From Anaerolineae bacterium (lineage in GTDB: Bacteria; Chloroflexota; Anaerolineae; Aggregatilineales; UBA2796): a DNA stretch of 64,000 bases. Made by a program: the position numbers and the translations under genes. Below are positions 1-10,620 of this stretch, piece after piece. How positions within the stretch are numbered: position 1 is the stretch's first letter; every line of letters starts with the position of its first letter. The stretch is taken from positions 1,095-65,094 of the forward strand of contig JADZBY010000435.1 of assembly GCA_020851855.1 (NCBI GenBank), in the 5' to 3' direction. Below the pieces are notes generated by a model. That model saw only the letters and a program-made list of their open reading frames with translations. It made no database searches and was not told where the DNA came from.

Positions 1-1101
1 ATTATGTACTCGCTTTCGCGACTCTGGAAACAGGCCGGCCTTGTCTGCAAGTTCGCAGAACCAGAAAGGTGCTGTCAACTCCTGGGAGCTTTGGTAATTC
101 AGGGCCACGCAGAAACCAAAGCACGTGTCTCGCAACACACAATCTCCGCATACCCGGTTCAACCTTCGTGGCAAGTCCTCGCGTAGGCGCAGCAGGGTTG
201 GGTGGTGAACCCAGATTTCAGCAACGCTTTCATGCCCGATCTGCCCATACAGGAGTTCGGGCACCTGAACTCCTATACCACACATTGACACTTGACCGGT
301 ATGAAGGATTCCCAAGATGTTAAATATGCTACAGCTCGTGCACCCACTATTACTGGTTAGTTGCCCCAGGCGGTCGAATGCCGGCGGCCAGCTGTAGTAT
401 ATTGGGATGCTCACCTTGGGCTGCAATGCACCTGTTACCCAACGCCCAATCTCGATGAGCCGGGAGATGTCCGTTATTCGTGAGCCCATCTTGCTTCCGC
501 GCCCAGTAGTCTGGATGATATTCAGCTTCAGTGATGAGCAGCCCACCGAAGAAGCCCACTCAGCAAGTGATCTGATTTCGTCAAGGTTGCCTTCGTGGAT
601 GCTCATGATCACTTGTGGCGCGAAGCCTACATCTACGAGAAATTGTACTCCTCTTCTCGCTGATTCGAAGCTGCCTTGAACACCACGCATTGAATCATGT
701 GTCAAGCTCGTTGCCCCATCCAAGCTAACGGACAAGGCTCGCACGTTGGTTTCTTCGCGCATGAAGCGCGCGAACGAGGCTGTTATGAGTGTCCCATTGG
801 TTTCAATGGTAATGCCGAGTTCACGCTCAGTGACATATAAGAGCATCTTTTCCAAGTCTGGATGCACTAATGGCTCACCGCCGGTGAACTTTACGTGCGT
901 TAGTCCCAGTGGTTCGCCCTCGCGAATGGCCTGGACAAACAGGTCATATGGTAAAGAGCGTTCTCCAGAAGATCGCTTGGACTGGATGAATGCTGGAGTG
1001 ATCCAACAATGCCGACAGGCGAGATTGCATTCGCCCGTGACATACATGTAGTAGGTGCGTAAAGGGGGAACACCCTCAGGCAACCCTGACTCAGAAGGCA
1101 A
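1..1101 (-). CDS. radical SAM/SPASM-domain maturase-like protein, partial (C-terminus lies beyond window start)
   Basis: Absent from the ORF track because there is no stop inside the window. I reverse-translated the frame with codons at 1-3, 4-6 and so on, and it is open from the stop at 1117-1119 down to nt 1. It reads ...YYMYVTGECNLACRHCWITP (CxxxCxxC, nt 1006-1029), VKFTGGEPLVHP (nt 859-894), GCTSCSIF (nt 325-345) and CGDCVLRDTCFGFC (nt 109-150). Candidate start is TTG 1099-1101 after GGGGAGGA; the alternative is ATG 1045-1047. Confidence 0.8.
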   Translation of the reverse strand, partial: MPSESGLPEGVPPLRTYYMYVTGECNLACRHCWITPAFIQSKRSSGERSLPYDLFVQAIREGEPLGLTHVKFTGGEPLVHPDLEKMLLYVTERELGITIETNGTLITASFARFMREETNVRALSVSLDGATSLTHDSMRGVQGSFESARRGVQFLVDVGFAPQVIMSIHEGNLDEIRSLAEWASSVGCSSLKLNIIQTTGRGSKMGSRITDISRLIEIGRWVTGALQPKVSIPIYYSWPPAFDRLGQLTSNSGCTSCSIFNILGILHTGQVSMCGIGVQVPELLYGQIGHESVAEIWVHHPTLLRLREDLPRRLNRVCGDCVLRDTCFGFCVALNYQSSQELTAPFWFCELADKAGLFPESRKRVHN

Positions 1102-2197
1102 ATTCTGGATCCTCCCCTACGTAGGCACGGTAACAATCTCGCGGATTAGCGAGATTCACGTTTCCGGTTATGGCATAGGCAACACCAGGGCATCCCCCCG
1201 TGCAGTACGACTGGTACCGGCAGGCAACGCAGCGTGGGTCAGTATTTAGCGGGATAGTACGTCTTTTTCGCAACGCTACCAAATCTGGAGCTCCAAGCCA
1301 GACATCGCGGAATGGCCTTTGTCCGATTCGTCCAAGATGGAGGTGCGGCAGTTGGTGACACGGTACGTAGGTTCCATCGTGAAGCACGGCCAAACGCTGC
1401 CACATGATTCCGCAACCTGTCAGGCATCCATCTGCAGGGCCGTCCGTGTACTCGCCAGCAGCATGCGCGCTCTTAACGCGCTCAATCATCTCAGCTATGA
1501 TTAGCGGTCCTGACAGCGCGCCACGCGCAACGCCGGGATGATTCTTGTCAAACTCCTGCATGACTCGGAATGCCAGGCGGCGCTCCTCACGGGTCATCTC
1601 CAAGTTCACGTGATTGCAGTGGCCGGCACCCATCGGGTACGCTTCGTTAACACCGAATTGCACTAAACCGAGGTCACCATGGAGCAGGTTGAGTGTTGCC
1701 TCCAAGTCGTCCACGTTCAACTTGCTGACCGTCACACGTACTGTCCAAGGCAGCGATAGCTTCTTCAGGGCATCAATACCGCGCATCGTCCGCTCGAAAG
1801 CACCCTTGCCACGAAGCGCATCATGCGTCTCTGGCCGCGAACCGTCAACGGAGACCTGAATGCTATCCAGTCGTTTCCGGTATGTGGCCAATCTAGATGC
1901 CACATTTTCAGTGATCAAGGTAGCGTTGGTCAGAATCTGAAATCGCATCTTATTCGCGACAACGCCATCAAGAAGTGCCCAGATATCGCGGCGCGTGAAG
2001 ATCTCACCTCCCGTCAGAATGACGCGCATTATTCCCGCATCGCGCAATTCTTCGAAGAAACTGAGCCAGGCATCCGTGGGAAGATCTGCCCGTCCGGTCA
2101 TCTCATCTGCATAGTAGCAGTGCTGGCAACGGAGATTGCATTGTCCGGTGAGTGCAATATCCACAGATTCTGGCATGGGAAGGAGTGATCGTGACAT
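1091..2197 (-). CDS. radical SAM/SPASM-domain peptide-maturase-like protein
   Basis: ORF 1091..2263. Contains LTGQCNLRCQHCYY (CxxxCxxC), ILTGGEIF, and a C-terminal Cys cluster CVACRYQSYCTGGCPG typical of SPASM domains. The probable start is ATG 2197 (AGGAA about 10 nt upstream). The 3-prime end overlaps the start region of the next rSAM gene. Confidence 0.85.
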   Translation of the reverse strand: MSRSLLPMPESVDIALTGQCNLRCQHCYYADEMTGRADLPTDAWLSFFEELRDAGIMRVILTGGEIFTRRDIWALLDGVVANKMRFQILTNATLITENVASRLATYRKRLDSIQVSVDGSRPETHDALRGKGAFERTMRGIDALKKLSLPWTVRVTVSKLNVDDLEATLNLLHGDLGLVQFGVNEAYPMGAGHCNHVNLEMTREERRLAFRVMQEFDKNHPGVARGALSGPLIIAEMIERVKSAHAAGEYTDGPADGCLTGCGIMWQRLAVLHDGTYVPCHQLPHLHLGRIGQRPFRDVWLGAPDLVALRKRRTIPLNTDPRCVACRYQSYCTGGCPGVAYAITGNVNLANPRDCYRAYVGEDPEFAF

Positions 2198-2219
2198 GAG
2201 AATGTTTCCTGGGGTATGG

Positions 2220-2834
2220 TCACAGGGAGGTCGCTTCCACAATACCAATGAACCCACTATCAACCATCAGATCCAGAAACTCTTCAGTATCTGCGCGCAT
2301 TTCAGCTTCAGACGCACCTTCGAATTCCTCAATCATTGCTGCAATGATACAGTCAGCAGTTTGGCTGTTGCTGCACAGCTTCCAGATAAAGAGGCCTGTG
2401 GAGTTCAGAAGTTGGACGCGGTCCGTGTCGGGATTGTATAGCAAGGCACCGTCTTCGTCCTCTTCACGGAGATTCACATCTGGGTTCTGTACGTAGCGCG
2501 AATTCATTGTATCTACCCCCGCAAGAGAGCCTTTGAGGATCTGCAGAAATCCCTGTTTCAGCAGTTCGGTGCACCAGCCATGGAATACGTGATCTAGCTC
2601 TCCGATCGAAGTCTCATGGTCCGCCCCATAACTCAACAACACCTCCGAGTAAAGGGTTGGCTCGCGCAGAGCCCGAACCAACCACGCTCCAGTTTCGTCG
2701 AGTTGTACAGCACTCCGTGTACGCAGGTTCAGGAGGATAGCCCCATCGTCAAAGTACTCGACTGCCACATGTGGGCACAATCCTAGTACCGCTCTGTACT
2801 CATCCATACTTGACACCGTGAGACACTCGCCCAA
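2220..2834 (-). CDS. PqqD-family (RRE-like) peptide chaperone with two tandem PqqD-like halves
   Basis: 204-aa ORF. Both halves fit the PqqD pattern: FDDGAILLNLRTRSAVQLDETGAWLVRAL...FHGWCTELLKQGFL and EDGALLYNPDTDRVQLLNSTGLFIWKLC...TEEFLDLMVDSGFI. It sits directly upstream of the two rSAM genes, with overlapping ends. Confidence 0.75.
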   Translation of the reverse strand: MGECLTVSSMDEYRAVLGLCPHVAVEYFDDGAILLNLRTRSAVQLDETGAWLVRALREPTLYSEVLLSYGADHETSIGELDHVFHGWCTELLKQGFLQILKGSLAGVDTMNSRYVQNPDVNLREEDEDGALLYNPDTDRVQLLNSTGLFIWKLCSNSQTADCIIAAMIEEFEGASEAEMRADTEEFLDLMVDSGFIGIVEATSL

Positions 2835-2919
2835 TGCTCCAAAGAGACCACGGAACGTCGTTCTTGCCTAGTGACAAAAGTCCTTTACATATCGGCGAAT
2901 CGTCACGCCAGCCCGGTCC

Positions 2920-3561
2920 TTACCCCCGCCACTCCTCATCCACCATTGTCGGATCGTACTTCAGCGCCAGCTTATGTCGAGCCAGCGCCTTGATGCGCTC
3001 CCGAGTCGCCTGTGGCAGGTCACCCCAGCGATACAACCCCAGACGGATGTTCTTCTGGACGCTCTCCAGCTGGACTGGTTTCGTGATCTGAAGCTGTGCA
3101 ATGAGCTCGTTGGCCATTTCTCGTAGCGCCTCTGGAAATGCCAGATCAAGCCCCGCCAACGGATTTCCCGGTGCTTCCCGCATTCCATGGATAGATACTT
3201 TACGAAGAATTCCCTCACTCAGGGCCTCAAGGACGCCCATCACTGCATCCTGCTTTTCTGGCGACAGCTCATCAAAGGCATCGGCAAGGAATTCGGCACG
3301 CGCGGAGTTCACGTTGGCTTTCGGGGGAATGTAGCCCGCCAGCCGGAACAGGTAGAGGGCATTGACCTCGAGGGCGTCGGCCACACGGCGTAGTGTGCTG
3401 GGATCAGGGTCCCTGGCTCGCTTGTCTATTCCGTGCTTGAGTAGATTGCGAATCACGGACTCCGACGTACTTGCCGCAGTAGCAAGGGTGCTGTTGTTGT
3501 ACCCACGTACTTCCATCAGGTCGGCAATGAAGCGACCAAGAGTGTCTGCTGAAGAAGCCAT
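2920..3561 (-). CDS. XRE-family helix-turn-helix transcriptional regulator (repressor-like)
   Basis: 213-aa ORF with an N-terminal HTH (GYNNSTLATAASTSESVIRNLLKHG). It is transcribed divergently from the plasmid-like genes across a promoter/operator region. Confidence 0.8.
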   Translation of the reverse strand: MASSADTLGRFIADLMEVRGYNNSTLATAASTSESVIRNLLKHGIDKRARDPDPSTLRRVADALEVNALYLFRLAGYIPPKANVNSARAEFLADAFDELSPEKQDAVMGVLEALSEGILRKVSIHGMREAPGNPLAGLDLAFPEALREMANELIAQLQITKPVQLESVQKNIRLGLYRWGDLPQATRERIKALARHKLALKYDPTMVDEEWRG

Positions 3562-3608
3562 GATCTGCGTATCTCTCGGATAACATGCCCGCCCAGAAAC
3601 CCACTCTG

Positions 3609-3689
3609 ATTATACAGCGCGAGCACGATCCGCTTGACCCCGAACCCGATCTTCCTGTATAATATCTCAGTGCGCGCAACTCGCGCACT
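3609..3689. promoter_or_regulatory. back-to-back divergent promoters with operator-like palindrome
   Basis: Plus strand: -35 TTGACC at 3634-3639, an 18-nt spacer, then extended -10 TGTATAAT at 3656-3663. Minus strand: extended -10 TGTATAAT, the reverse complement of 3609-3616. The palindrome AGTGCGCG-caact-CGCGCACT at 3669-3689 sits at the predicted plus-strand transcription start. Confidence 0.55.
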
Positions 3690-3995: not shown

Positions 3996-4052
3996 GCTTC
4001 TCTCTTTTTTTCGCCCGCTTGCCCGTAGCCAGCCCGTATCGCGGGAGGTCTC

Positions 4053-4253
4053 ATGATTAAGCGTATTGAGTTCACCCTGAACCTGGCCGACCCACGCGAC
4101 GAGGCTATTTACCGCGCCCTCGTGCCGTCGCTGCGTTACCGTCGCGCCGGGGCGCTCATCCGGCAGGCGCTGGGCGTATTCCTCAGCAGCAACGCGCGGC
4201 CACCGGTCCAGCCGCATAGCCCGCAGGAGCGCAAGCTTCATGAGCAGTCCTAA
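4053..4253 (+). CDS. small ribbon-helix-helix-like DNA-binding protein
   Basis: 66 aa, with GGGAGG 5-6 nt before the ATG. It shows a beta-strand/helix pattern (IEFTLNL...DEAIYRAL...AGALIRQALGVFL) resembling the protein encoded after parM. It overlaps the parM start. Confidence 0.55.
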   Translation: MIKRIEFTLNLADPRDEAIYRALVPSLRYRRAGALIRQALGVFLSSNARPPVQPHSPQERKLHEQS

Positions 4254-5271
4254 GCGTAACGGCGCGCTGACCATCGGCCTGGACATCGGCTACGGCGTGG
4301 TCAAGGCCGTGACCTCGGACCAGGTCGTGATGTTCCCGTCTGTCATGGGCCACGCCCGCGAGGTGAAGTTCCAGCAAGAGGACATGTCACGGCGCTACCC
4401 CGGCGACCAGATCCGCGACGACGAGGGCGACTGGTTCGTGGGCGATCTGGCGCTGGCGCAACTGCCCACCGGCGAGCTGCTACGGCTGCGCGGACGCACC
4501 GCAAACGAGTCGACGATGGGCAATGCCTTCCGGCTGCGGTTGGCCAAAGTGGCTATCGGCAAGCTTCTGCAGGATGCGCACAACCGCGATCTAGCCCACA
4601 TCCGCATCGCCACCGGCTTGCCCGTCGATCATATGCGCGACGCCGATGAGCTGAAAGAGACCTTGTGCGGCCAGCACCTCATCCAGACCGACACTGCCGA
4701 GGTGGTCGCCAACGTGACGGACGTGATGGTCATGCCGCAGCCCTACGGCACCATCTTTTCCGCCACGCTGACCGAGTCGGGCGAGATCAACCGCAGGCAC
4801 AACTTCCGGCTCACCGGCGTGTGCGACGTCGGCACGTACACGGTTGATCTGGCGCTCGACGACGAGGGGCAGTTCCTGGACTCGGAGAGTGGCAGCGTCG
4901 AGAGTGGCGTGTACACGGCCCAGGAGCGCATCGCGTCGGCTCTGGAGCGCGATTACCGCGAGAAGATGCCTTTCCGCATCGTGGAAGAAGTACTACGTAC
5001 CGGGCTATTCCACGCCAACGGTCAGGCAGTAGATTACCGCGCCATCGTCGAGCAGGCCCTCGCGCCGCTGCGCAGCGCGACGCTCAACCTCATGTCTGAG
5101 AAGTGGCAGCGCGGCACGATCATCGAAGTGATCTACCTGTCCGGTGGCGGCGCTGACCTCGTGGCAGATGTGGTGTGTGAAGCGTATCCGCAGGCGCAGA
5201 TCATCCCCGAGGCGCAACTTGCCAATGCGCGCGGCTACCTGAACTATGCATACTTCATGGCGCGTCCGTGA
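4240..5271 (+). CDS. parM: ParM/StbA-type actin-like plasmid segregation ATPase
   Basis: Carries actin-fold signatures: LTIGLDIGYGVVKAV (phosphate 1), VCDVGTYTVDLA (phosphate 2) and IYLSGGGADL (adenosine). Confidence 0.85.
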   Translation: MSSPKRNGALTIGLDIGYGVVKAVTSDQVVMFPSVMGHAREVKFQQEDMSRRYPGDQIRDDEGDWFVGDLALAQLPTGELLRLRGRTANESTMGNAFRLRLAKVAIGKLLQDAHNRDLAHIRIATGLPVDHMRDADELKETLCGQHLIQTDTAEVVANVTDVMVMPQPYGTIFSATLTESGEINRRHNFRLTGVCDVGTYTVDLALDDEGQFLDSESGSVESGVYTAQERIASALERDYREKMPFRIVEEVLRTGLFHANGQAVDYRAIVEQALAPLRSATLNLMSEKWQRGTIIEVIYLSGGGADLVADVVCEAYPQAQIIPEAQLANARGYLNYAYFMARP

Positions 5272-5345
5272 ACGCGGCGCGGCGGTTTGACAAGTTTGAC
5301 ACGCCGGTTTTATCGGTCAAACCAGGGTGGCGACGCGAGGCGGCG

Positions 5346-5702
5346 ATGAAGCAGCGGAAACACCGGATGATCGCCTTCAAGGCCTATACCGACACCGACG
5401 CCGACTTGCTGGCGTGGTGGCAAAGCATCCCGGTTGGGGCGCGCAGCGGCGCGATACGCGAGTTGCTGCGCCTGGCGCTTGGCTACCAGCTGGAAACGAC
5501 TGTTTCCGACGCGGATATGGCCGCACTGCGGGCCGATGTCGCCTGGATTCGCGGAGTACTGGTCGAATTGCCCCGCCAGGTGAGCGCGATGGCACAGCCC
5601 GCGCCTGCACCACAGGTGAATGGGAATGAAACCGCCGTACAGGAGATGGACGACCGCAGCGCTAAGCTACGTGAGCAGCGTCTGCGAAAGCCCAAATGGT
5701 GA
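5346..5702 (+). CDS. ParR-like / RHH-like small DNA-binding protein
   Basis: From ORF 5268..5702. ATG 5346 is preceded by GAGG; an alternative GTG 5268 overlaps the parM stop. MIAFKAYTDTDADLLAWWQSIPVGARSGAIRELLRLAL aligns with the 4053 protein. Confidence 0.5.
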   Translation: MKQRKHRMIAFKAYTDTDADLLAWWQSIPVGARSGAIRELLRLALGYQLETTVSDADMAALRADVAWIRGVLVELPRQVSAMAQPAPAPQVNGNETAVQEMDDRSAKLREQRLRKPKW

Positions 5703-5744
5703 GATGTATGCTCAAAGGCTGGCTTTCTCTGCGACATGCTCCCT

Positions 5745-5970
5745 GGCAAAGCGCCAAGCACTTTGCCGGACGATGCGTCGAGGCGCATCGTCCCTCTCTG
5801 ACCCCCTGCCAGTGTCGTGGTGGCACAAGCTGGTCGCAGGGGGTCAGAAGCCAGCTAAATCTTAGCTGGTTCCTCAAACGCCGGAAGGGCTGGTGCAGCA
5901 CGCACGGCGTGCCGCACCTGTGCGACGGTGTAACCACCTGTCGCACGTGTGGGCAGGACCGGTCCCGCCC
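5745..5970. promoter_or_regulatory. inverted-repeat-dense non-coding region (candidate oriT or centromere)
   Basis: Seven inverted repeats lie within 226 bp: GGCAAAG/CTTTGCC (5745-5767), GGACGATGCG/CGCATCGTCC (5768-5793), TCTGACCCCCTGC/GCAGGGGGTCAGA (5797-5848), CCAGCTAA/TTAGCTGG (5851-5869), GCACG-G-CGTGC (5902-5912), GTGCGAC/GTCGCAC (5920-5946) and GGGCAGGACCGGTCCCGCCC (5951-5970). Confidence 0.45.
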
Positions 5971-6036
5971 ACGCAACACACTAACGGCGATTCTGCTCCG
6001 CAAGTCGCACCAGTCGGACGCAAGAGGATTCCACCC

Positions 6037-6360
6037 ATGAATCACCGGCAAAGTGTGCAGGCCATTGCCCGGCGGTTGCCCCACCTTGAGCGTTACGACG
6101 TGGCCGAAGTTCTGGAAGTCGCCGCCGAAGTCTGGGCAAAGGAACTGGCCCGACCCGGCGGCGTGGTGAAGATCGGCAACCTGGGCAAGCTGCATGTGGA
6201 AGTGCAGCACATGCGCGCCGGGGGCGCGATCCGTCAGCGACTCGACGATAAGTGTGGGACGACTGCTCCGCCCACGCTGCGCCGCCTGTACTTCCGTTTT
6301 CGTCCGGCCCTCTGGCTGAGGGCGAGTGTGGAACATGCCCTTGAAGCGCAAGAAGAGTGA
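6037..6360 (+). CDS. HU/IHF-family DNA-binding protein
   Basis: This is the ATG 6037 part of ORF 5893..6360. It has an HU-like arm region: VVKIGNLGKLHVEVQHMRAGG...LRRLYFRFRPALWLRASV. Confidence 0.65.
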   Translation: MNHRQSVQAIARRLPHLERYDVAEVLEVAAEVWAKELARPGGVVKIGNLGKLHVEVQHMRAGGAIRQRLDDKCGTTAPPTLRRLYFRFRPALWLRASVEHALEAQEE

Positions 6361-6649
6361 GCTGTACACGGAGCGCCAGACCGTCAGCCTGACCCCGGAG
6401 CAGATGCGCCGCTTAAGAGAGCTGCGCTCCGTGCGGGCGCGCAAGGATGGCAGCCTGGTACACACCACCGACCTGATCCGCGACGCGGTCAACTACTACC
6501 TGGCTGCCCAGGAAGACCTGCCCGGCTCGCGGCGCGCCATCGCCAAGGGCATCGAGGCGAAGGTTGACGCGCTCGACGGCAAAGTGGATGCCGTCGCGCA
6601 GATGCTGGCAGTCTTCATCGAGCGTGTCACACGGCGGCGGGAGCAGTAA
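6335..6649 (+). CDS. ribbon-helix-helix (CopG/MetJ-like) protein, possible relaxosome accessory factor
   Basis: Contains RQTVSLTPEQMRRLRELR...TTDLIRDAVNYYL. It lies immediately upstream of the HUH-nuclease-like gene, 3 nt from it. Confidence 0.6.
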   Translation: MPLKRKKSELYTERQTVSLTPEQMRRLRELRSVRARKDGSLVHTTDLIRDAVNYYLAAQEDLPGSRRAIAKGIEAKVDALDGKVDAVAQMLAVFIERVTRRREQ

Positions 6650-6652
6650 GCC

Positions 6653-7687
6653 ATGGATCGTAAACAGATGTGCGTGGCCAACGTGCGCTACAAACGCCCA
6701 ACCGCCGACGAAGCGAAGCGCATGAAGAACCTGCTCGGCTACCTGACCTACCGCGACAGCCGCGACCAGGGCGCAAAGATGGTGGTCGGGCAGGATCGCT
6801 GGGTCGATCGCGGCCTGGGCAAGTCCGTCGCGGACATCGCGCACCGCTGTGACGATCTGCGAAGCAAGCATGTGCTGGCTTTTTCGCTGGTCATCAATCC
6901 CAACCCGCAGCTCACGGCCATGATCGCGGCCCACCGGCGCGAGCAGTTCGTGCGCGAATTGACCGAGAAGACGGTCGCCGATTTCTTCGAGGCGCGCGGG
7001 CTGGATACCGGCTGCGAGATGAGCTACGTGCTGCACCACCGCCTCAGCGACGACCCGCAAGCCCCCGGCCTGACCGACCCGCACACGCATGTCGTACTGC
7101 CCGGCACCGTCTTCAGCGAAGAGCACGGCGAGCGCGTGCCGCTCTACTTCTCGCAGAATAAGAAGGTCGACCACATCGCCATGCTGCACGCCGCCACGGA
7201 AAAGAACATGGCGCACCTGCTGGAGCGCTACATCGGGCCGGACTGGGAGCAGCGTTTCGACCACCTGGAAGCCGTGCGCGAGCAGCAGCGCCGGATTGTC
7301 GAGCAACCGCCACACGGAAAGATGCCCCACGAGAAAGATGCAGAGACCGAATGGAACGTGTGGTGCGGCGTGCGTCGGACCGACGAGCGCCACACGGCCC
7401 TCGGCTACTACCGCGGCTACTCCGTCCCGACCGAAGACGACCCGGACGCGGTACGCCTCGAATTCCGCCCGCTGGTCTCCGGTCTGCGCCATGACGAGGC
7501 GGATGTGCTGGCGCGTTACTTTGCGCGCACGATGAACGGGGACGCAAGGATGCTCCATGCACTGGCGGAGCAACTGAAGGCATTGCGCGCAGGCGAACGC
7601 GCGGGGCTGGTAGCCGAGTTGCGTGAGCACGGCTGGGATAGGCCGACAACCCGGTCGCCGGAAATCTCGTTCGATATCGACTTCTGA
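6653..7687 (+). CDS. HUH-endonuclease superfamily protein (relaxase/mobilization or Rep-like)
   Basis: 344 aa. It has a His-rich metal motif HHRLSDDPQAPGLTDPHTHVVLPG and N-terminal Tyr candidates (LGYLTYRDSR). Its context is an RHH gene upstream and a primase-helicase downstream. Confidence 0.65.
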   Translation: MDRKQMCVANVRYKRPTADEAKRMKNLLGYLTYRDSRDQGAKMVVGQDRWVDRGLGKSVADIAHRCDDLRSKHVLAFSLVINPNPQLTAMIAAHRREQFVRELTEKTVADFFEARGLDTGCEMSYVLHHRLSDDPQAPGLTDPHTHVVLPGTVFSEEHGERVPLYFSQNKKVDHIAMLHAATEKNMAHLLERYIGPDWEQRFDHLEAVREQQRRIVEQPPHGKMPHEKDAETEWNVWCGVRRTDERHTALGYYRGYSVPTEDDPDAVRLEFRPLVSGLRHDEADVLARYFARTMNGDARMLHALAEQLKALRAGERAGLVAELREHGWDRPTTRSPEISFDIDF

Positions 7688-7704
7688 GCCGAAAGCGCCT
7701 GTCG

Positions 7705-10620
7705 ATGACGGAAAGCCAGACCATCTCCGCAGTGAACAACCCCCAGCCGGATCGCAGCGCCGAGCGGCGCGCATTCTTGCGTGCGCTCTACGGGACCAGC
7801 CCGGACGACCTGTACCTTGAGCTGCGCTGCATCCACCCTGAAACCGGCGAGGTCCAGCGGCTGTGGGGGCGACTCGGCGACAAGCGCGGTCTGGCCTCGG
7901 CGCTGCGTCAGGCGGATCGCCTCAATCGGGAGGGCTTCGGTGTCTATTTCGCCCCGTGCCTGCGCCGATCAAAACAGGGCACCGCTGACTCTGCGGCGCT
8001 GGCAACGGCCCTGTGGATCGATATGGACAGCGACTCGGTCCAGCGCCCGCGTGACCTGGAACGGCTGCGCAGCTTCAATCCGCCGCCCTCGTTCATCGTC
8101 GACAGCGGCGGCGGATTGCACGGCTACTGGCTTCTGGACGCGCCGATACCGCTTGATGAGGACAAAAAGCGTGAGCACTTTGCCAGTTTGCTCAATGGCC
8201 TGTTCGCCGCACTCGGCGGAGATGCCCGGTATGTGAAATCCGCCGCTTCCGTGATGCGTCTGCCGGGCAGCGTGAACACCAAGCCCGGACGCGATCAAGC
8301 GCGCGTGCGCATCGTGGAGAGCCACCCCGACCGCCGTCACGCCGTCAGTGCCTTCGCGTGGCTGGAAAGTCCGCCGAGCGAACCCAGCAAAGGCCCAACT
8401 CGCACAAAATCCAGCGACTCGGAAGAACATCCCCTTCCGGCCCGCACCGAGCATTATCTCGAATCGGGCGCGCCCAACGGCAGCCGCAACGCGGAGTTGT
8501 TCGCCGCCGCATGCCAGCTTCGCGACGCCGGACTCAGCCTGACTCACGCCGAGCAGGAGTTGGTCGCGCGCTATCTGGCCGATGGAACCGGTCGCGAGAG
8601 TGCGACAGCCCGTGAGCGTGAAGCGCGGGCGACCATCGCCAGTGCTTTTCGTCAGCCGCCTCGTGCGCCTATCCCACATAGCGCGACCGCGCAGGAGCAG
8701 GTGGCGGCGCTCGTGGAGCACGCCCATGCGCGTCCCAACTCGGCACAAATCGTCGAGGCGGTGAAGGCCTGCGCGGCACTGAATCCGGTCGAGTGGGCCG
8801 AGGAGCGCCAGCGGCTGAAGGCGCTGTGCGGCGACGGACTGAAGGTCGGCGACCTGGACCGGCTGTACCGCGACGAGCGAAAGCGTCTGGCGCGGTCCGA
8901 GGCGCAGGCCTTCCGCGAGAAGGAGCACTATGTCGAGGTGGATGGCAAGCTCGTCTACCAGCGGCAGACGGCGCGCGGCGTGATGGAGAAGGTGGTGACC
9001 GACTGGACCGCGAAGGTGGTGGAGCGCGTCACTCGCATGGATGACGATGGGCAAGTCGAGCATGTGGCTGTCGTCGAGCTTCGCCGCGACCAAGTCCAGG
9101 CACACATTGACGTGCCGAGTGAGCTTTTCGGTGACGATGCGGCCCTACGCCGCTTCATCGCCGGGCGCGCCGGCGAAGCGTTCACCGTGCGGGCGGGCAT
9201 GGCGAAGCACCTGACGCCCGCGATACTCAGCCTGTCGGGCACGTATGCCTCCCGGGCCAGTTACCGCTTCATGGGCTGGACACAGATCGACGGTCACTGG
9301 GCCTATATCACGCCGAAGCTGTGCGTCACTGCCAAGAGCATCCTCAAGGAGGCGCACGAGGTCGAGCTGGAGTCGCGCCTGCGTGATTATCACCTCGCCG
9401 AGTCCGACTGGGAAGCCAGTCTGAAGGCGTTCGCGGCGATGGCAGCCGTTTTTCCGCCAGAGCTTGCCCCTACGCTCATCGCTTTTGCCTGTCTGCCGCT
9501 CTTCCAACGCTTCTTTCCCAGTGCCGCGCCCAAGCCCGCCCTGCATCTCGTCGGCACCACTGGCAGTGGCAAGAGCGAGATCGCCTCCCTGATGACCAGC
9601 CTGTACGGCGATTTCTCCCGTGACACGCCGCCCGCACAGTGGGGCGATACGGTGAACACCGTCGAGGCGCTCGGCTACGCGCTGGCCGATGCGCTCTACT
9701 GGGTGGACGACTTCAAGCACATCTATGCCGACGAACGGACGTTTACGCGCTTCCTGCAGAGCTATTCGCGTGGCATGGGGCGCGGTCGCCTCACGCGCGA
9801 GGCGAAAGTGCGGCAAGAGCGCCCGTGCCGAGGGCATCTACTGTCGACCGGCGAGACAACGCTGACCGGCGAGGCCTCGGTGCTTGCCCGCATGATTGCC
9901 CTCGAGGTGCCGCCCTGGGAACAGCGCGATCCAGTTGGCCTTGAGCTTGCCCGCGCAGTCAGACTGCGTGGTTACTTACCCGGATTCACCGCGCACCTTG
10001 CACAATGGGTAGCTGCACAGGCCGATCAGGGCATTTTGACGAAGGACATGATGCGGCGCTTCGAGGCTAGGGTGGACGACTACCGCAAGCGCCTCGCTGC
10101 CACTGGCCTGAAGGCAAACAATACGGGACGCATCGTCGGCAACTGGGCTGTGCTGGCGACCGTGTACCAGATGCTCGGCGACCTCCTGGCGTCCCGTGGA
10201 AAGGCCGATGTGCTTCCCGCCTGGTACGACCTAGCGACCGAGACTGCGCAATCGATGCAGGAAGAGCGCGCTGGCCACACCTTCCTGAACGTACTTGGCC
10301 AGCTCGTCGCCTCAGGCCAATGCCTCATAGAATCGTCGCTGCGCCCGCAATACGAGCCATCGCCCGGCAAGACCGTGGTTGGTTACCGTGACGACGGCTT
10401 TGTGTACCTTCTACCCGATGTTGCCCTCAAGGAAGTGAACTACATCCAGCCGCTGCGCTTTACGGGTCAGGCAGTCGGCGTGCAACTGCGCGAAGATGGG
10501 CTGCTTGTTCCAGGGACAACGAATCTAACCGTGCAACGCAGCGTGCGCGGCAGCGTGATTAGTCTCTGGCGATTGAGAGCAGAAGCACTAGTCGGTGAAG
10601 CAGAGGCATCTGAGGACTGA
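7705..10620 (+). CDS. plasmid/phage-type replicative primase-helicase (prim-pol-like N-terminus, PriCT-like segment, P-loop C-terminus)
   Basis: 971 aa. It contains GFGVYFAP...ALWIDMDSD...FIVDSGGGLHGYWLL (primase-polymerase-like), NGSRNAELFAAACQLRDAG (PriCT-like) and the Walker A motif LVGTTGSGKSEIASL. Confidence 0.8.
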   Translation: MTESQTISAVNNPQPDRSAERRAFLRALYGTSPDDLYLELRCIHPETGEVQRLWGRLGDKRGLASALRQADRLNREGFGVYFAPCLRRSKQGTADSAALATALWIDMDSDSVQRPRDLERLRSFNPPPSFIVDSGGGLHGYWLLDAPIPLDEDKKREHFASLLNGLFAALGGDARYVKSAASVMRLPGSVNTKPGRDQARVRIVESHPDRRHAVSAFAWLESPPSEPSKGPTRTKSSDSEEHPLPARTEHYLESGAPNGSRNAELFAAACQLRDAGLSLTHAEQELVARYLADGTGRESATAREREARATIASAFRQPPRAPIPHSATAQEQVAALVEHAHARPNSAQIVEAVKACAALNPVEWAEERQRLKALCGDGLKVGDLDRLYRDERKRLARSEAQAFREKEHYVEVDGKLVYQRQTARGVMEKVVTDWTAKVVERVTRMDDDGQVEHVAVVELRRDQVQAHIDVPSELFGDDAALRRFIAGRAGEAFTVRAGMAKHLTPAILSLSGTYASRASYRFMGWTQIDGHWAYITPKLCVTAKSILKEAHEVELESRLRDYHLAESDWEASLKAFAAMAAVFPPELAPTLIAFACLPLFQRFFPSAAPKPALHLVGTTGSGKSEIASLMTSLYGDFSRDTPPAQWGDTVNTVEALGYALADALYWVDDFKHIYADERTFTRFLQSYSRGMGRGRLTREAKVRQERPCRGHLLSTGETTLTGEASVLARMIALEVPPWEQRDPVGLELARAVRLRGYLPGFTAHLAQWVAAQADQGILTKDMMRRFEARVDDYRKRLAATGLKANNTGRIVGNWAVLATVYQMLGDLLASRGKADVLPAWYDLATETAQSMQEERAGHTFLNVLGQLVASGQCLIESSLRPQYEPSPGKTVVGYRDDGFVYLLPDVALKEVNYIQPLRFTGQAVGVQLREDGLLVPGTTNLTVQRSVRGSVISLWRLRAEALVGEAEASED

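Follow-up and report, generated by a model that had tools for sequence, protein, structure and literature searches.

Where two tandem radical S-adenosylmethionine (SAM) enzymes with SPASM domains stand beside a PqqD-type protein and no peptide substrate is in view, two questions arise: to what family does the cassette belong, and upon what does it act? Such a cassette occupies the left edge of a 64,000-nucleotide stretch of contig JADZBY010000435.1 (C438 below) from the Anaerolineae bacterium assembly GCA_020851855.1. That whole stretch is termed the window here; its first nucleotide is base 1095 of C438, and the additional 1,094 bases to its left were also examined. A sequence-only reading of the window had described the three genes as an orphan cassette of the type that produces peptides made on ribosomes and modified after translation (RiPPs), and had noted a likeness to the three-gene GeoRSP systems.

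Judged by profile scores and gene order, the cassette is instead a divergent member of the SynChlorMet (SCM) type, neither an orphan nor a GeoRSP system, and the window very probably contains the first three genes of an SCM-type RiPP operon (scmD-scmE-scmF-precursor-scmC), the products of which would constitute a modification pathway guided by a RiPP recognition element (RRE).

Family assignment

The products of the cassette were scored against the NCBIfam SCM models, for which the curated cut-offs are 400 bits for both ScmE and ScmF, 100 for ScmD, 125 for ScmC and 35 for ScmA. ScmE gives 356.2 bits against TIGR04250 (E 1.7e-106, profile positions 2-353 of 358) and ScmF 364.3 bits against TIGR04251 (E 7.7e-109, profile positions 2-352 of 353); both scores lie under the cut-off, and both lead the next family by more than 200 bits, the runner-up being the haem b synthase AhbD (141 bits for ScmE and 128 bits for ScmF). 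The PqqD-type protein gives 49.4 bits against TIGR04248, which is its top PqqD subfamily model and is again below cut-off, and a ScmC-like protein that is truncated by the end of the contig gives 20.7 bits against TIGR04249, also below cut-off, with its orthologues in two related loci (L002 and L003) reaching 44 and 52 bits, respectively. The precursor of 73 residues described below has no match to TIGR04252 (ScmA) at E <=10 and stays beneath the cut-off of that model.

At the level of the whole system, a co-directional PqqD homologue, two tandem radical SAM/SPASM enzymes, a small precursor and a ScmC protein were all found, in the order D-E-F-A-C on one strand, and separated by spacers of at most 38 nt or joined by short overlaps. 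At that level the cassette is, on comparison of sequences, an SCM system, and one that is divergent in its scores, in its double RRE, in a variant leader and in a longer precursor. The earlier view, that the two radical SAM/SPASM maturases of a RiPP-type cassette are here served by a PqqD/RRE protein, is upheld. The term 'orphan' is not, as the family can be named and a precursor gene is present. Furthermore, the best matches of the two enzymes are not to non-RiPP families and a conserved small open reading frame (ORF) exists, which is the reverse of the two outcomes that the sequence-only reading had listed as grounds for abandoning it.

A precursor gene to the left of the window

The substrate gene had been suggested to lie beyond nucleotide 1 of the window, and an ORF with cysteine repeats was indeed found there, 38 nt past the stop codon of scmF and preceded by an AAGGA sequence 7 nt before its ATG (Table 1). 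The encoded peptide consists of a leader, MAKRKYVKPRSSLLDRTLAVSIGG, followed by a core, CNQGNTPGACGSGWYAGTCSMGNDQGQGTACATEGFGANPGCATGTRAN. The leader contains a stretch, KRKYVKPRSSLLDRTLAVSIGG, in which basic residues are followed by a YxxP-x4-L motif, and the core contains five cysteines spaced 9-12 residues apart, four of them in a CxxG context. A hidden Markov model (HMM) built from the family described below, with this peptide and its three closest relatives left out, still picked the peptide out of 12,348 six-frame segments, with E 6.3e-6; the next best segment, among those of the 64-kb window, reached just E 2.5. When the full peptide HMM was applied to the whole genome of 5.1 Mb, this ORF (E 1.3e-8) alone scored better than E 0.1, the next match being at E 0.18.

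The earlier statements that no precursor gene lies within the window, and that the gap upstream of the cassette is devoid of a small precursor ORF, are both in agreement with these searches: the best in-window segment is the one at E 2.5, and the gap at 2835-2919 contains no minus-strand ORF of at least 30 residues. A precursor in that gap or elsewhere in the window was rejected on the same two observations.

The precursor family in related loci

Peptides of the same build recur across relatives. A metagenome scan contributed approximately 47 added loci with ScmF identities of at least 34%, and in 42 loci the sequence continues for 400 bp or more past the 3' end of ScmF. Of these, 28 have a match to the peptide HMM on the same strand and within 1.5 kb downstream (a match anywhere was present in 32). 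The comparison of neighbourhoods that had been proposed returns a conserved small ORF, shortly downstream of ScmF. Nearly all of the matches to a profile of 32 peptides fall on the strand of ScmF. The leader of the family comprises basic residues, a Y-x-x-P motif, four further residues and a leucine, and the tyrosine precedes the first core cysteine by 16-25 residues (mostly 18-19). The core is made up of 2-8 repeats of approximately 10-11 residues, each starting with CxxG and rich in Gly, Ala, Ser, Thr and Asn. Across the 32 peptides, 119 of 142 cysteines are followed by glycine at position +3, the spacing from cysteine to cysteine is mostly 9-15 residues, and a glycine occupies position -2 of the first cysteine in 22 peptides.

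Six of 31 homologous peptides match the TIGR04252 ScmA model directly (best E 3.4e-5), and so connect the peptide family without a break to the SCM precursor already catalogued. Within this family, the present peptide, those of L002 and L003, and the protein P0001 form a subfamily, the leader of which reads Y-x-K-P-x-[A/S]-x-x-L-D as against a consensus of YEKPxLxxLG. That leader co-occurs with a fused double PqqD protein in the three loci that can be read, P0001 being a protein sequence only. P0001, with 78 residues, was the single match of a three-peptide profile among 5.8 billion clustered proteins; as six-frame searches beside ScmF yielded dozens, gene callers evidently overlook most precursor ORFs of this type.

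Two or more precursor genes, in tandem or scattered and with differing numbers of CxxG repeats, were observed in many SCM loci (Table 1). In two loci, a precursor-like ORF lies upstream of ScmF (L024:3-308 and L014:2653-2994), and the gene order is thus not universal.

Gene order and the core enzyme

The closest ScmF relatives are 61% identical, in an Anaerolineae metagenome-assembled genome (MAG; locus L002), and 53% identical, in a Desulfococcaceae genome (L003). In both of these loci, a similar peptide lies directly 3' of ScmF and is followed by ScmC and then by a gene resembling a signal peptidase. ScmF-like genes were found in just three of 400 other sampled genomes of the same phylum, and one of these loci (L011) is canonical: it encodes a single-domain ScmD, ScmE, ScmF (507 bits), two tandem peptides, ScmC (143.5 bits) and a peptidase gene. 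D-E-F-A-C is likewise the order in L003, L011, L012 and L016, and in many loci from metagenomes.

None of the loci examined lacks ScmF, and some of them lack ScmE. In L002, L023 and L033, ScmD is followed directly by ScmF; L002 and L023 keep a CxxG-repeat peptide, and the contig that carries L033 ends 25 bp past ScmF, too soon for a peptide gene to be visible. By comparison of these gene sets, the loci that lack ScmE point to ScmF as the core enzyme and to ScmE as an accessory one. The region L002:5379-8838 (CAYPON010000036.1), with a fused double PqqD protein, ScmF, a peptide, ScmC and a signal peptidase in the absence of ScmE, represents a natural single-enzyme version of the cassette.

The cassette genes within the window

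The three genes that had been read as co-directional on the minus strand, encoding a PqqD-like protein and two radical SAM enzymes, are borne out by the ORFs and by Pfam domains. In ScmD, the C-terminal PqqD domain (residues 131-196) matches PF05402 at E 7e-19, and the N-terminal half is a weak second PqqD domain, with a Pfam E-value of 0.0036 when searched alone. The two halves align with one another at equivalent positions (E 0.008), and the PqqD models are matched twice in each of the homologues from L002 (196 residues) and L003 (224 residues).

Both ScmE and ScmF match PF04055 (Radical_SAM) and PF13186 (SPASM), and each carries, as had been noted, its own intact CxxxCxxC motif (GQCNLRCQHC in ScmE and GECNLACRHC in ScmF) together with a C-terminal cysteine cluster; translations and alignment display the full seven-cysteine SPASM pattern (C...GX4C, CX2CX5CX3C, C) in both enzymes. 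In an alignment of six ScmF homologues, CNLACRHC and the seven SPASM cysteines are invariant.

The genes had also been described as overlapping. That is correct for scmE and scmF, which overlap by 11 nt when the latter starts at TTG 1101, with a GGAGG sequence 10 nt upstream. An overlap between scmD and scmE requires the longest ORF of the latter (1091-2263, 390 residues from TTG 2263), whereas the ATG at 2197 is better supported, being backed by homologues and by an AGGA box 9 nt upstream, and leaves a spacer of 22 nt. The complete scmF gene, at C438 1065-2195, encodes 376 residues. Beyond the left edge of the window are nine of its codons and its stop, the latter at C438 1065-1067, 28-30 nt from window nucleotide 1. 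A scan for promoters and terminators revealed no enrichment over shuffled sequences, and the only sigma-70-like match in the vicinity, at window 2953-2980, is a weak one that falls within the regulator gene.

Table 1. Location of the cassette genes, their neighbours and related multi-precursor loci (window coordinates unless a contig or locus is named)
Feature	Coordinates	Strand	Remarks
ScmD-like RiPP recognition protein, two fused PqqD domains	2220..2834	-	204 aa; PF05402 and TIGR04248 matches
ScmD N-terminal half	~2520-2834	-	alternative start ATG 2807
ScmD C-terminal half	2220-2519	-	
ScmE-like radical SAM/SPASM enzyme	1091..2197	-	368 aa from ATG 2197; TIGR04250
ScmF-like radical SAM/SPASM enzyme	1..1101, open at window edge	-	TIGR04251; PF04055 and PF13186
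Precursor gene	C438 805-1026	-	73 aa; 68-289 nt left of window nt 1; 38 nt after ScmF stop
ScmC-like HprK-type P-loop gene	C438 2-766, cut by contig end	-	38 nt after precursor gene; GPSGAGKST
Spacer from first cassette gene to XRE-type regulator gene	2835..2919		85 bp; presumed operon promoter region
XRE-type regulator	2920-3561	-	213 aa; XRE-like helix-turn-helix N-terminus; no Pfam/NCBIfam match at E <=0.01
Mobile island, plasmid- or island-like	4240-10620	+	starts right beside cassette
ParM-like actin-fold protein	4240-5271	+	
Relaxase/HUH-like ORF	6653-7687	+	344 aa
Primase-helicase-like ORF	7705-10620	+	971 aa
Multi-precursor SCM locus	L011:8681-9205		
Multi-precursor SCM locus	L020:925-1669		
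Multi-precursor SCM locus	L025:1679-2201		
Multi-precursor SCM locus	L028:3426-4075		
Multi-precursor SCM locus	L038:5144-8087		
Multi-precursor SCM locus	L040:1626-5016		
Multi-precursor SCM locus	L062:5116-8583		

ScmC and the accessory genes

The truncated ScmC-like protein is 38% identical to the copy in L002 (E 4.8e-46) and shows weak matches to ScmC and HprK-related models. A structure model of the L002 protein (predicted local distance difference test score of 80) matches ATP-dependent phosphoenolpyruvate (PEP) carboxykinases and HprK/P in a Foldseek search. PEP carboxykinases and HprK/P share one P-loop kinase fold, and the ScmC-like protein is, according to this model, a protein of kinase-type fold.

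In relatives whose cassette is complete, there are in addition genes for an archaeal-type signal peptidase, an ABC exporter and a nucleoside triphosphate (NTP) transferase. The gene for the latter (NTP_transf_5; PF14907, E 2e-48) lies upstream of ScmD in L002, L003, L016 and L017 and is missing from that position here; the local copy of the cassette may thus be incomplete. Elsewhere in the genome, a weak NTP_transf_5-like match on contig C526 (4635-5438, minus strand), which shares 26% identity with its L002 counterpart (E 5e-7), is the sole candidate.

Genomic context and alternative explanations

A number of observations weigh against the assignment of these genes to an SCM-type operon. All five NCBIfam SCM models fall short of their curated cut-offs; the base composition of the cassette would also be compatible with a contig end that is chimeric or was mis-binned; and the NTP_transf_5 gene that relatives carry upstream has been replaced locally by the regulator gene of a mobile island. 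In addition, no S26 signal peptidase was found in the assembly, which is 90% complete; the many generic ABC transporter genes of the genome include none that can be linked to the cassette; the template-modelling (TM) scores in the Foldseek comparison of ScmC are low (0.2-0.5); and a full-text literature search for SynChlorMet and the SCM TIGR accessions returned no characterized product.

Several of these points lead to the alternative that survives best, which we consider unlikely: that what is present locally is a remnant, non-functional or captured incompletely, either acquired horizontally and since deprived of its peptidase, exporter and NTP transferase, or brought here by a mis-binned or chimeric contig end. 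The G+C content of the cassette is 53.8%, as against 65.3% for the genome, which places it in the lowest 0.7% of 4-kb windows, and a sharp step in composition separates the cassette and the XRE-type gene (approximately 54-57%; window 1-3500) from the adjoining island (approximately 63-66%; window 4000-10000), with C438 at 57.6% overall. This step points to DNA that was acquired horizontally, or to a contig that is a mosaic or was mis-binned. An estimated contamination of 5.7% in the assembly, a contig that ends within scmC, a mobile island directly upstream, and the lack of an S26 peptidase in the assembly together with an NTP_transf_5-like match that is weak and located just on another contig, are all in keeping with a remnant. 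Conversely, all four complete ORFs are intact, retain every catalytic cysteine, are compactly spaced and have plausible ribosome-binding sites; the truncation marks where the assembly stops rather than a mutation; and it is an Anaerolineae MAG that contains the closest relative of ScmF.

The XRE-type gene probably belongs to the neighbouring island rather than to the cassette. No counterpart of it appears in the ORF lists of L002 and L003, to which the comparison was confined, no direct search having been made.

A second alternative, which is very improbable, is that the two radical SAM enzymes belong to a pathway for cofactor or protein maturation (haem synthesis of the AhbD/NirJ type, pyrroloquinoline quinone (PQQ), mycofactocin or anaerobic sulfatase maturation) rather than to a RiPP system. 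Second-tier matches of this kind do exist: in addition to AhbD and NirJ, TIGR03962 (MftC) is matched with 101-106 bits and TIGR02109 (PqqE) with 60-99 bits, and the solved structures closest to ScmE include PqqE (6c8v) together with SkfB (6efn), SuiB (5v1q) and CteB (5wgg), those closest to ScmF being a cytosylglucuronate decarboxylase, SkfB and PqqE, although all of these structures are distant. Those models nevertheless lie at least 200 bits below the Scm models and far under their own cut-offs (265 for MftC and 381 for PqqE). Partner genes for haem, PQQ or mycofactocin are not found next to the cassette, and the precursor bears no resemblance to those of MftA or PqqA type. A conserved cysteine-repeat peptide of variable length, provided with a leader, accompanies ScmF in most loci, often in at least two copies, and relatives encode a leader peptidase and an exporter; these features argue for a secreted RiPP rather than a cofactor.

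The GeoRSP likeness, which rests upon a similar list of parts (a PqqD protein and two radical SAM/SPASM enzymes) and weak matches to TIGR04302 (27.9 bits, cut-off 100) and TIGR04303 (88.7 bits for ScmE and 87.5 for ScmF, cut-off 400), can be set aside almost entirely, because the SCM scores are far higher and because the order of the genes fits SCM, as do the ScmC-like gene and the ScmA-like peptide. The GeoRSP, mycofactocin, PQQ, AhbD/NirJ and sulfatase-maturase assignments were all ruled out by the ranking of scores.

Comparison with known systems

The SCM family (TIGR04248-04252) is defined by computation only, and has resided in family databases for more than ten years without a known product, chemistry or role. 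Full-text searches of the literature for SynChlorMet, TIGR04248-04251 and ScmA, ScmC or ScmD returned nothing relevant, and searches for the combination of radical SAM/SPASM, HPr kinase and PqqD, or for equivalents in work on RiPP phosphorylation from 2024 onwards, returned no paper. The present cassette shares with that family its parts and their order as in L011, its top-scoring models, a YxxP leader with CxxG repeats and, in relatives, the signal-peptidase and exporter genes that follow. It differs in that two PqqD domains are fused in its ScmD (204 residues, as compared to 96-98 in canonical copies), in that its precursor has 73 residues and five cysteines, as compared to the 49 positions of the ScmA model, and in the subfamily form of its leader.

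In the linear polyphosphorylated peptide (LPP) pathway of Bacillota, which comprises LppA, K, B, S, D and N, experiments have demonstrated that a kinase polyphosphorylates a serine of the core, and that a homologue of signal peptidase cuts off a YxxP-type leader in a process that requires the RRE; that paper makes no mention of radical SAM enzymes, and LPP clusters are without them (Popov et al. 2026, Nat Commun 17:6633, PMC13381572). Relatives of the present cassette (L002, L003 and L016) carry all five accessory genes of the LPP set, and the leader again starts with YxxP. In contrast, the LPP leader reads YxxPxVLxHQxIxFETxxS and shares with KRKYVKPRSSLLDRTLAVSIGG only YxxP, LPP precursors have no cysteine repeats, and the present cassette has two radical SAM enzymes; moreover, of the LPP gene set just the RRE and a truncated kinase-like gene are assembled in this genome.

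The maturases of sacti- and ranthipeptides (SkfB, AlbA, CteB, and PapB with freyrasin) are likewise SPASM radical SAM enzymes that act upon leader-bearing peptides with multiple cysteines. The substrate of PapB is a string of short cysteine-containing repeats, like the precursor described here. The closest solved structures include those of SkfB and CteB, and matches to the models for StsB, PapB and AlbA were obtained. Identity is low, with 60-112 bits as compared to cut-offs of 340-850; those maturases usually possess an N-terminal RRE of their own, whereas ScmE and ScmF rely on a separate PqqD protein; and the CxxG repeat has no conserved acidic acceptor, a thioether being putative here.

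The paeninodin-type lasso clusters, with a B1 RRE, an HprK-like kinase and an NTP transferase, are similar in further respects: the PqqD protein matches the B1 model NF033530 with 40 bits, the leader is of the form YxxPx[L/V], like the lasso leader motif, and HprK-like and NTP_transf_5 tailoring genes are held in common. The cassette lacks a lasso cyclase and a B2 protease, and its radical SAM enzymes are class-defining instead.

A proposed pathway

The identities of the genes, their intact motifs and their order, the existence and conservation of the precursor, and the kinase-type fold of ScmC come from direct analysis, and upon these the following pathway may be proposed. The precursor would dock by its basic-YxxP-x4-L leader onto the PqqD/RRE protein ScmD, which would in turn present the core to ScmE and ScmF. 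In both of those enzymes the radical SAM motif begins at residues 20-25, so that neither has an RRE of its own and both must presumably depend on ScmD. ScmE and ScmF would most likely place one cross-link per cysteine repeat. By analogy, on which the chemistry must rest as no SCM product has been characterized, this is probably a thioether of the sacti- or ranthipeptide type. ScmC would then probably phosphorylate a serine or threonine of the peptide, with cleavage of the leader and subsequent export as the likely last steps.

By the same kind of analogy, SCM-type cassettes are read as an LPP-like, leader-guided chassis to which radical SAM/SPASM cross-linking enzymes have been added. A broader proposal, which we offer tentatively and regard as somewhat less probable than its contrary, is that SCM-type cassettes, including the sub-threshold branch with a double RRE, produce a structurally new class of RiPP, in which a novel radical SAM cross-link in each CxxG repeat of approximately 10 residues would be followed by phosphorylation of the LPP type, processing by signal peptidase and export, and in which the PqqD domains might divide the work, with one bringing the leader to the radical SAM enzymes, while the kinase and the peptidase would receive it from the other.

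The locus and its relatives define a substrate family, a candidate core enzyme in ScmF and a set of accessory genes that match those of LPP, and in doing so provide testable roles for nearly every gene; what these widespread SCM-like cassettes make is an attractive question that can now be tested directly. The value for the present genome itself is modest, its copy being cut by a contig end and probably horizontally acquired.

Further radical SAM/SPASM-like genes occur elsewhere in the same genome, on contigs C578 (approximately 1298-3061, two genes back to back) and C427 (approximately 2695-3612); these are 27-35% identical to ScmE and ScmF, and could mark other peptide-maturation loci.

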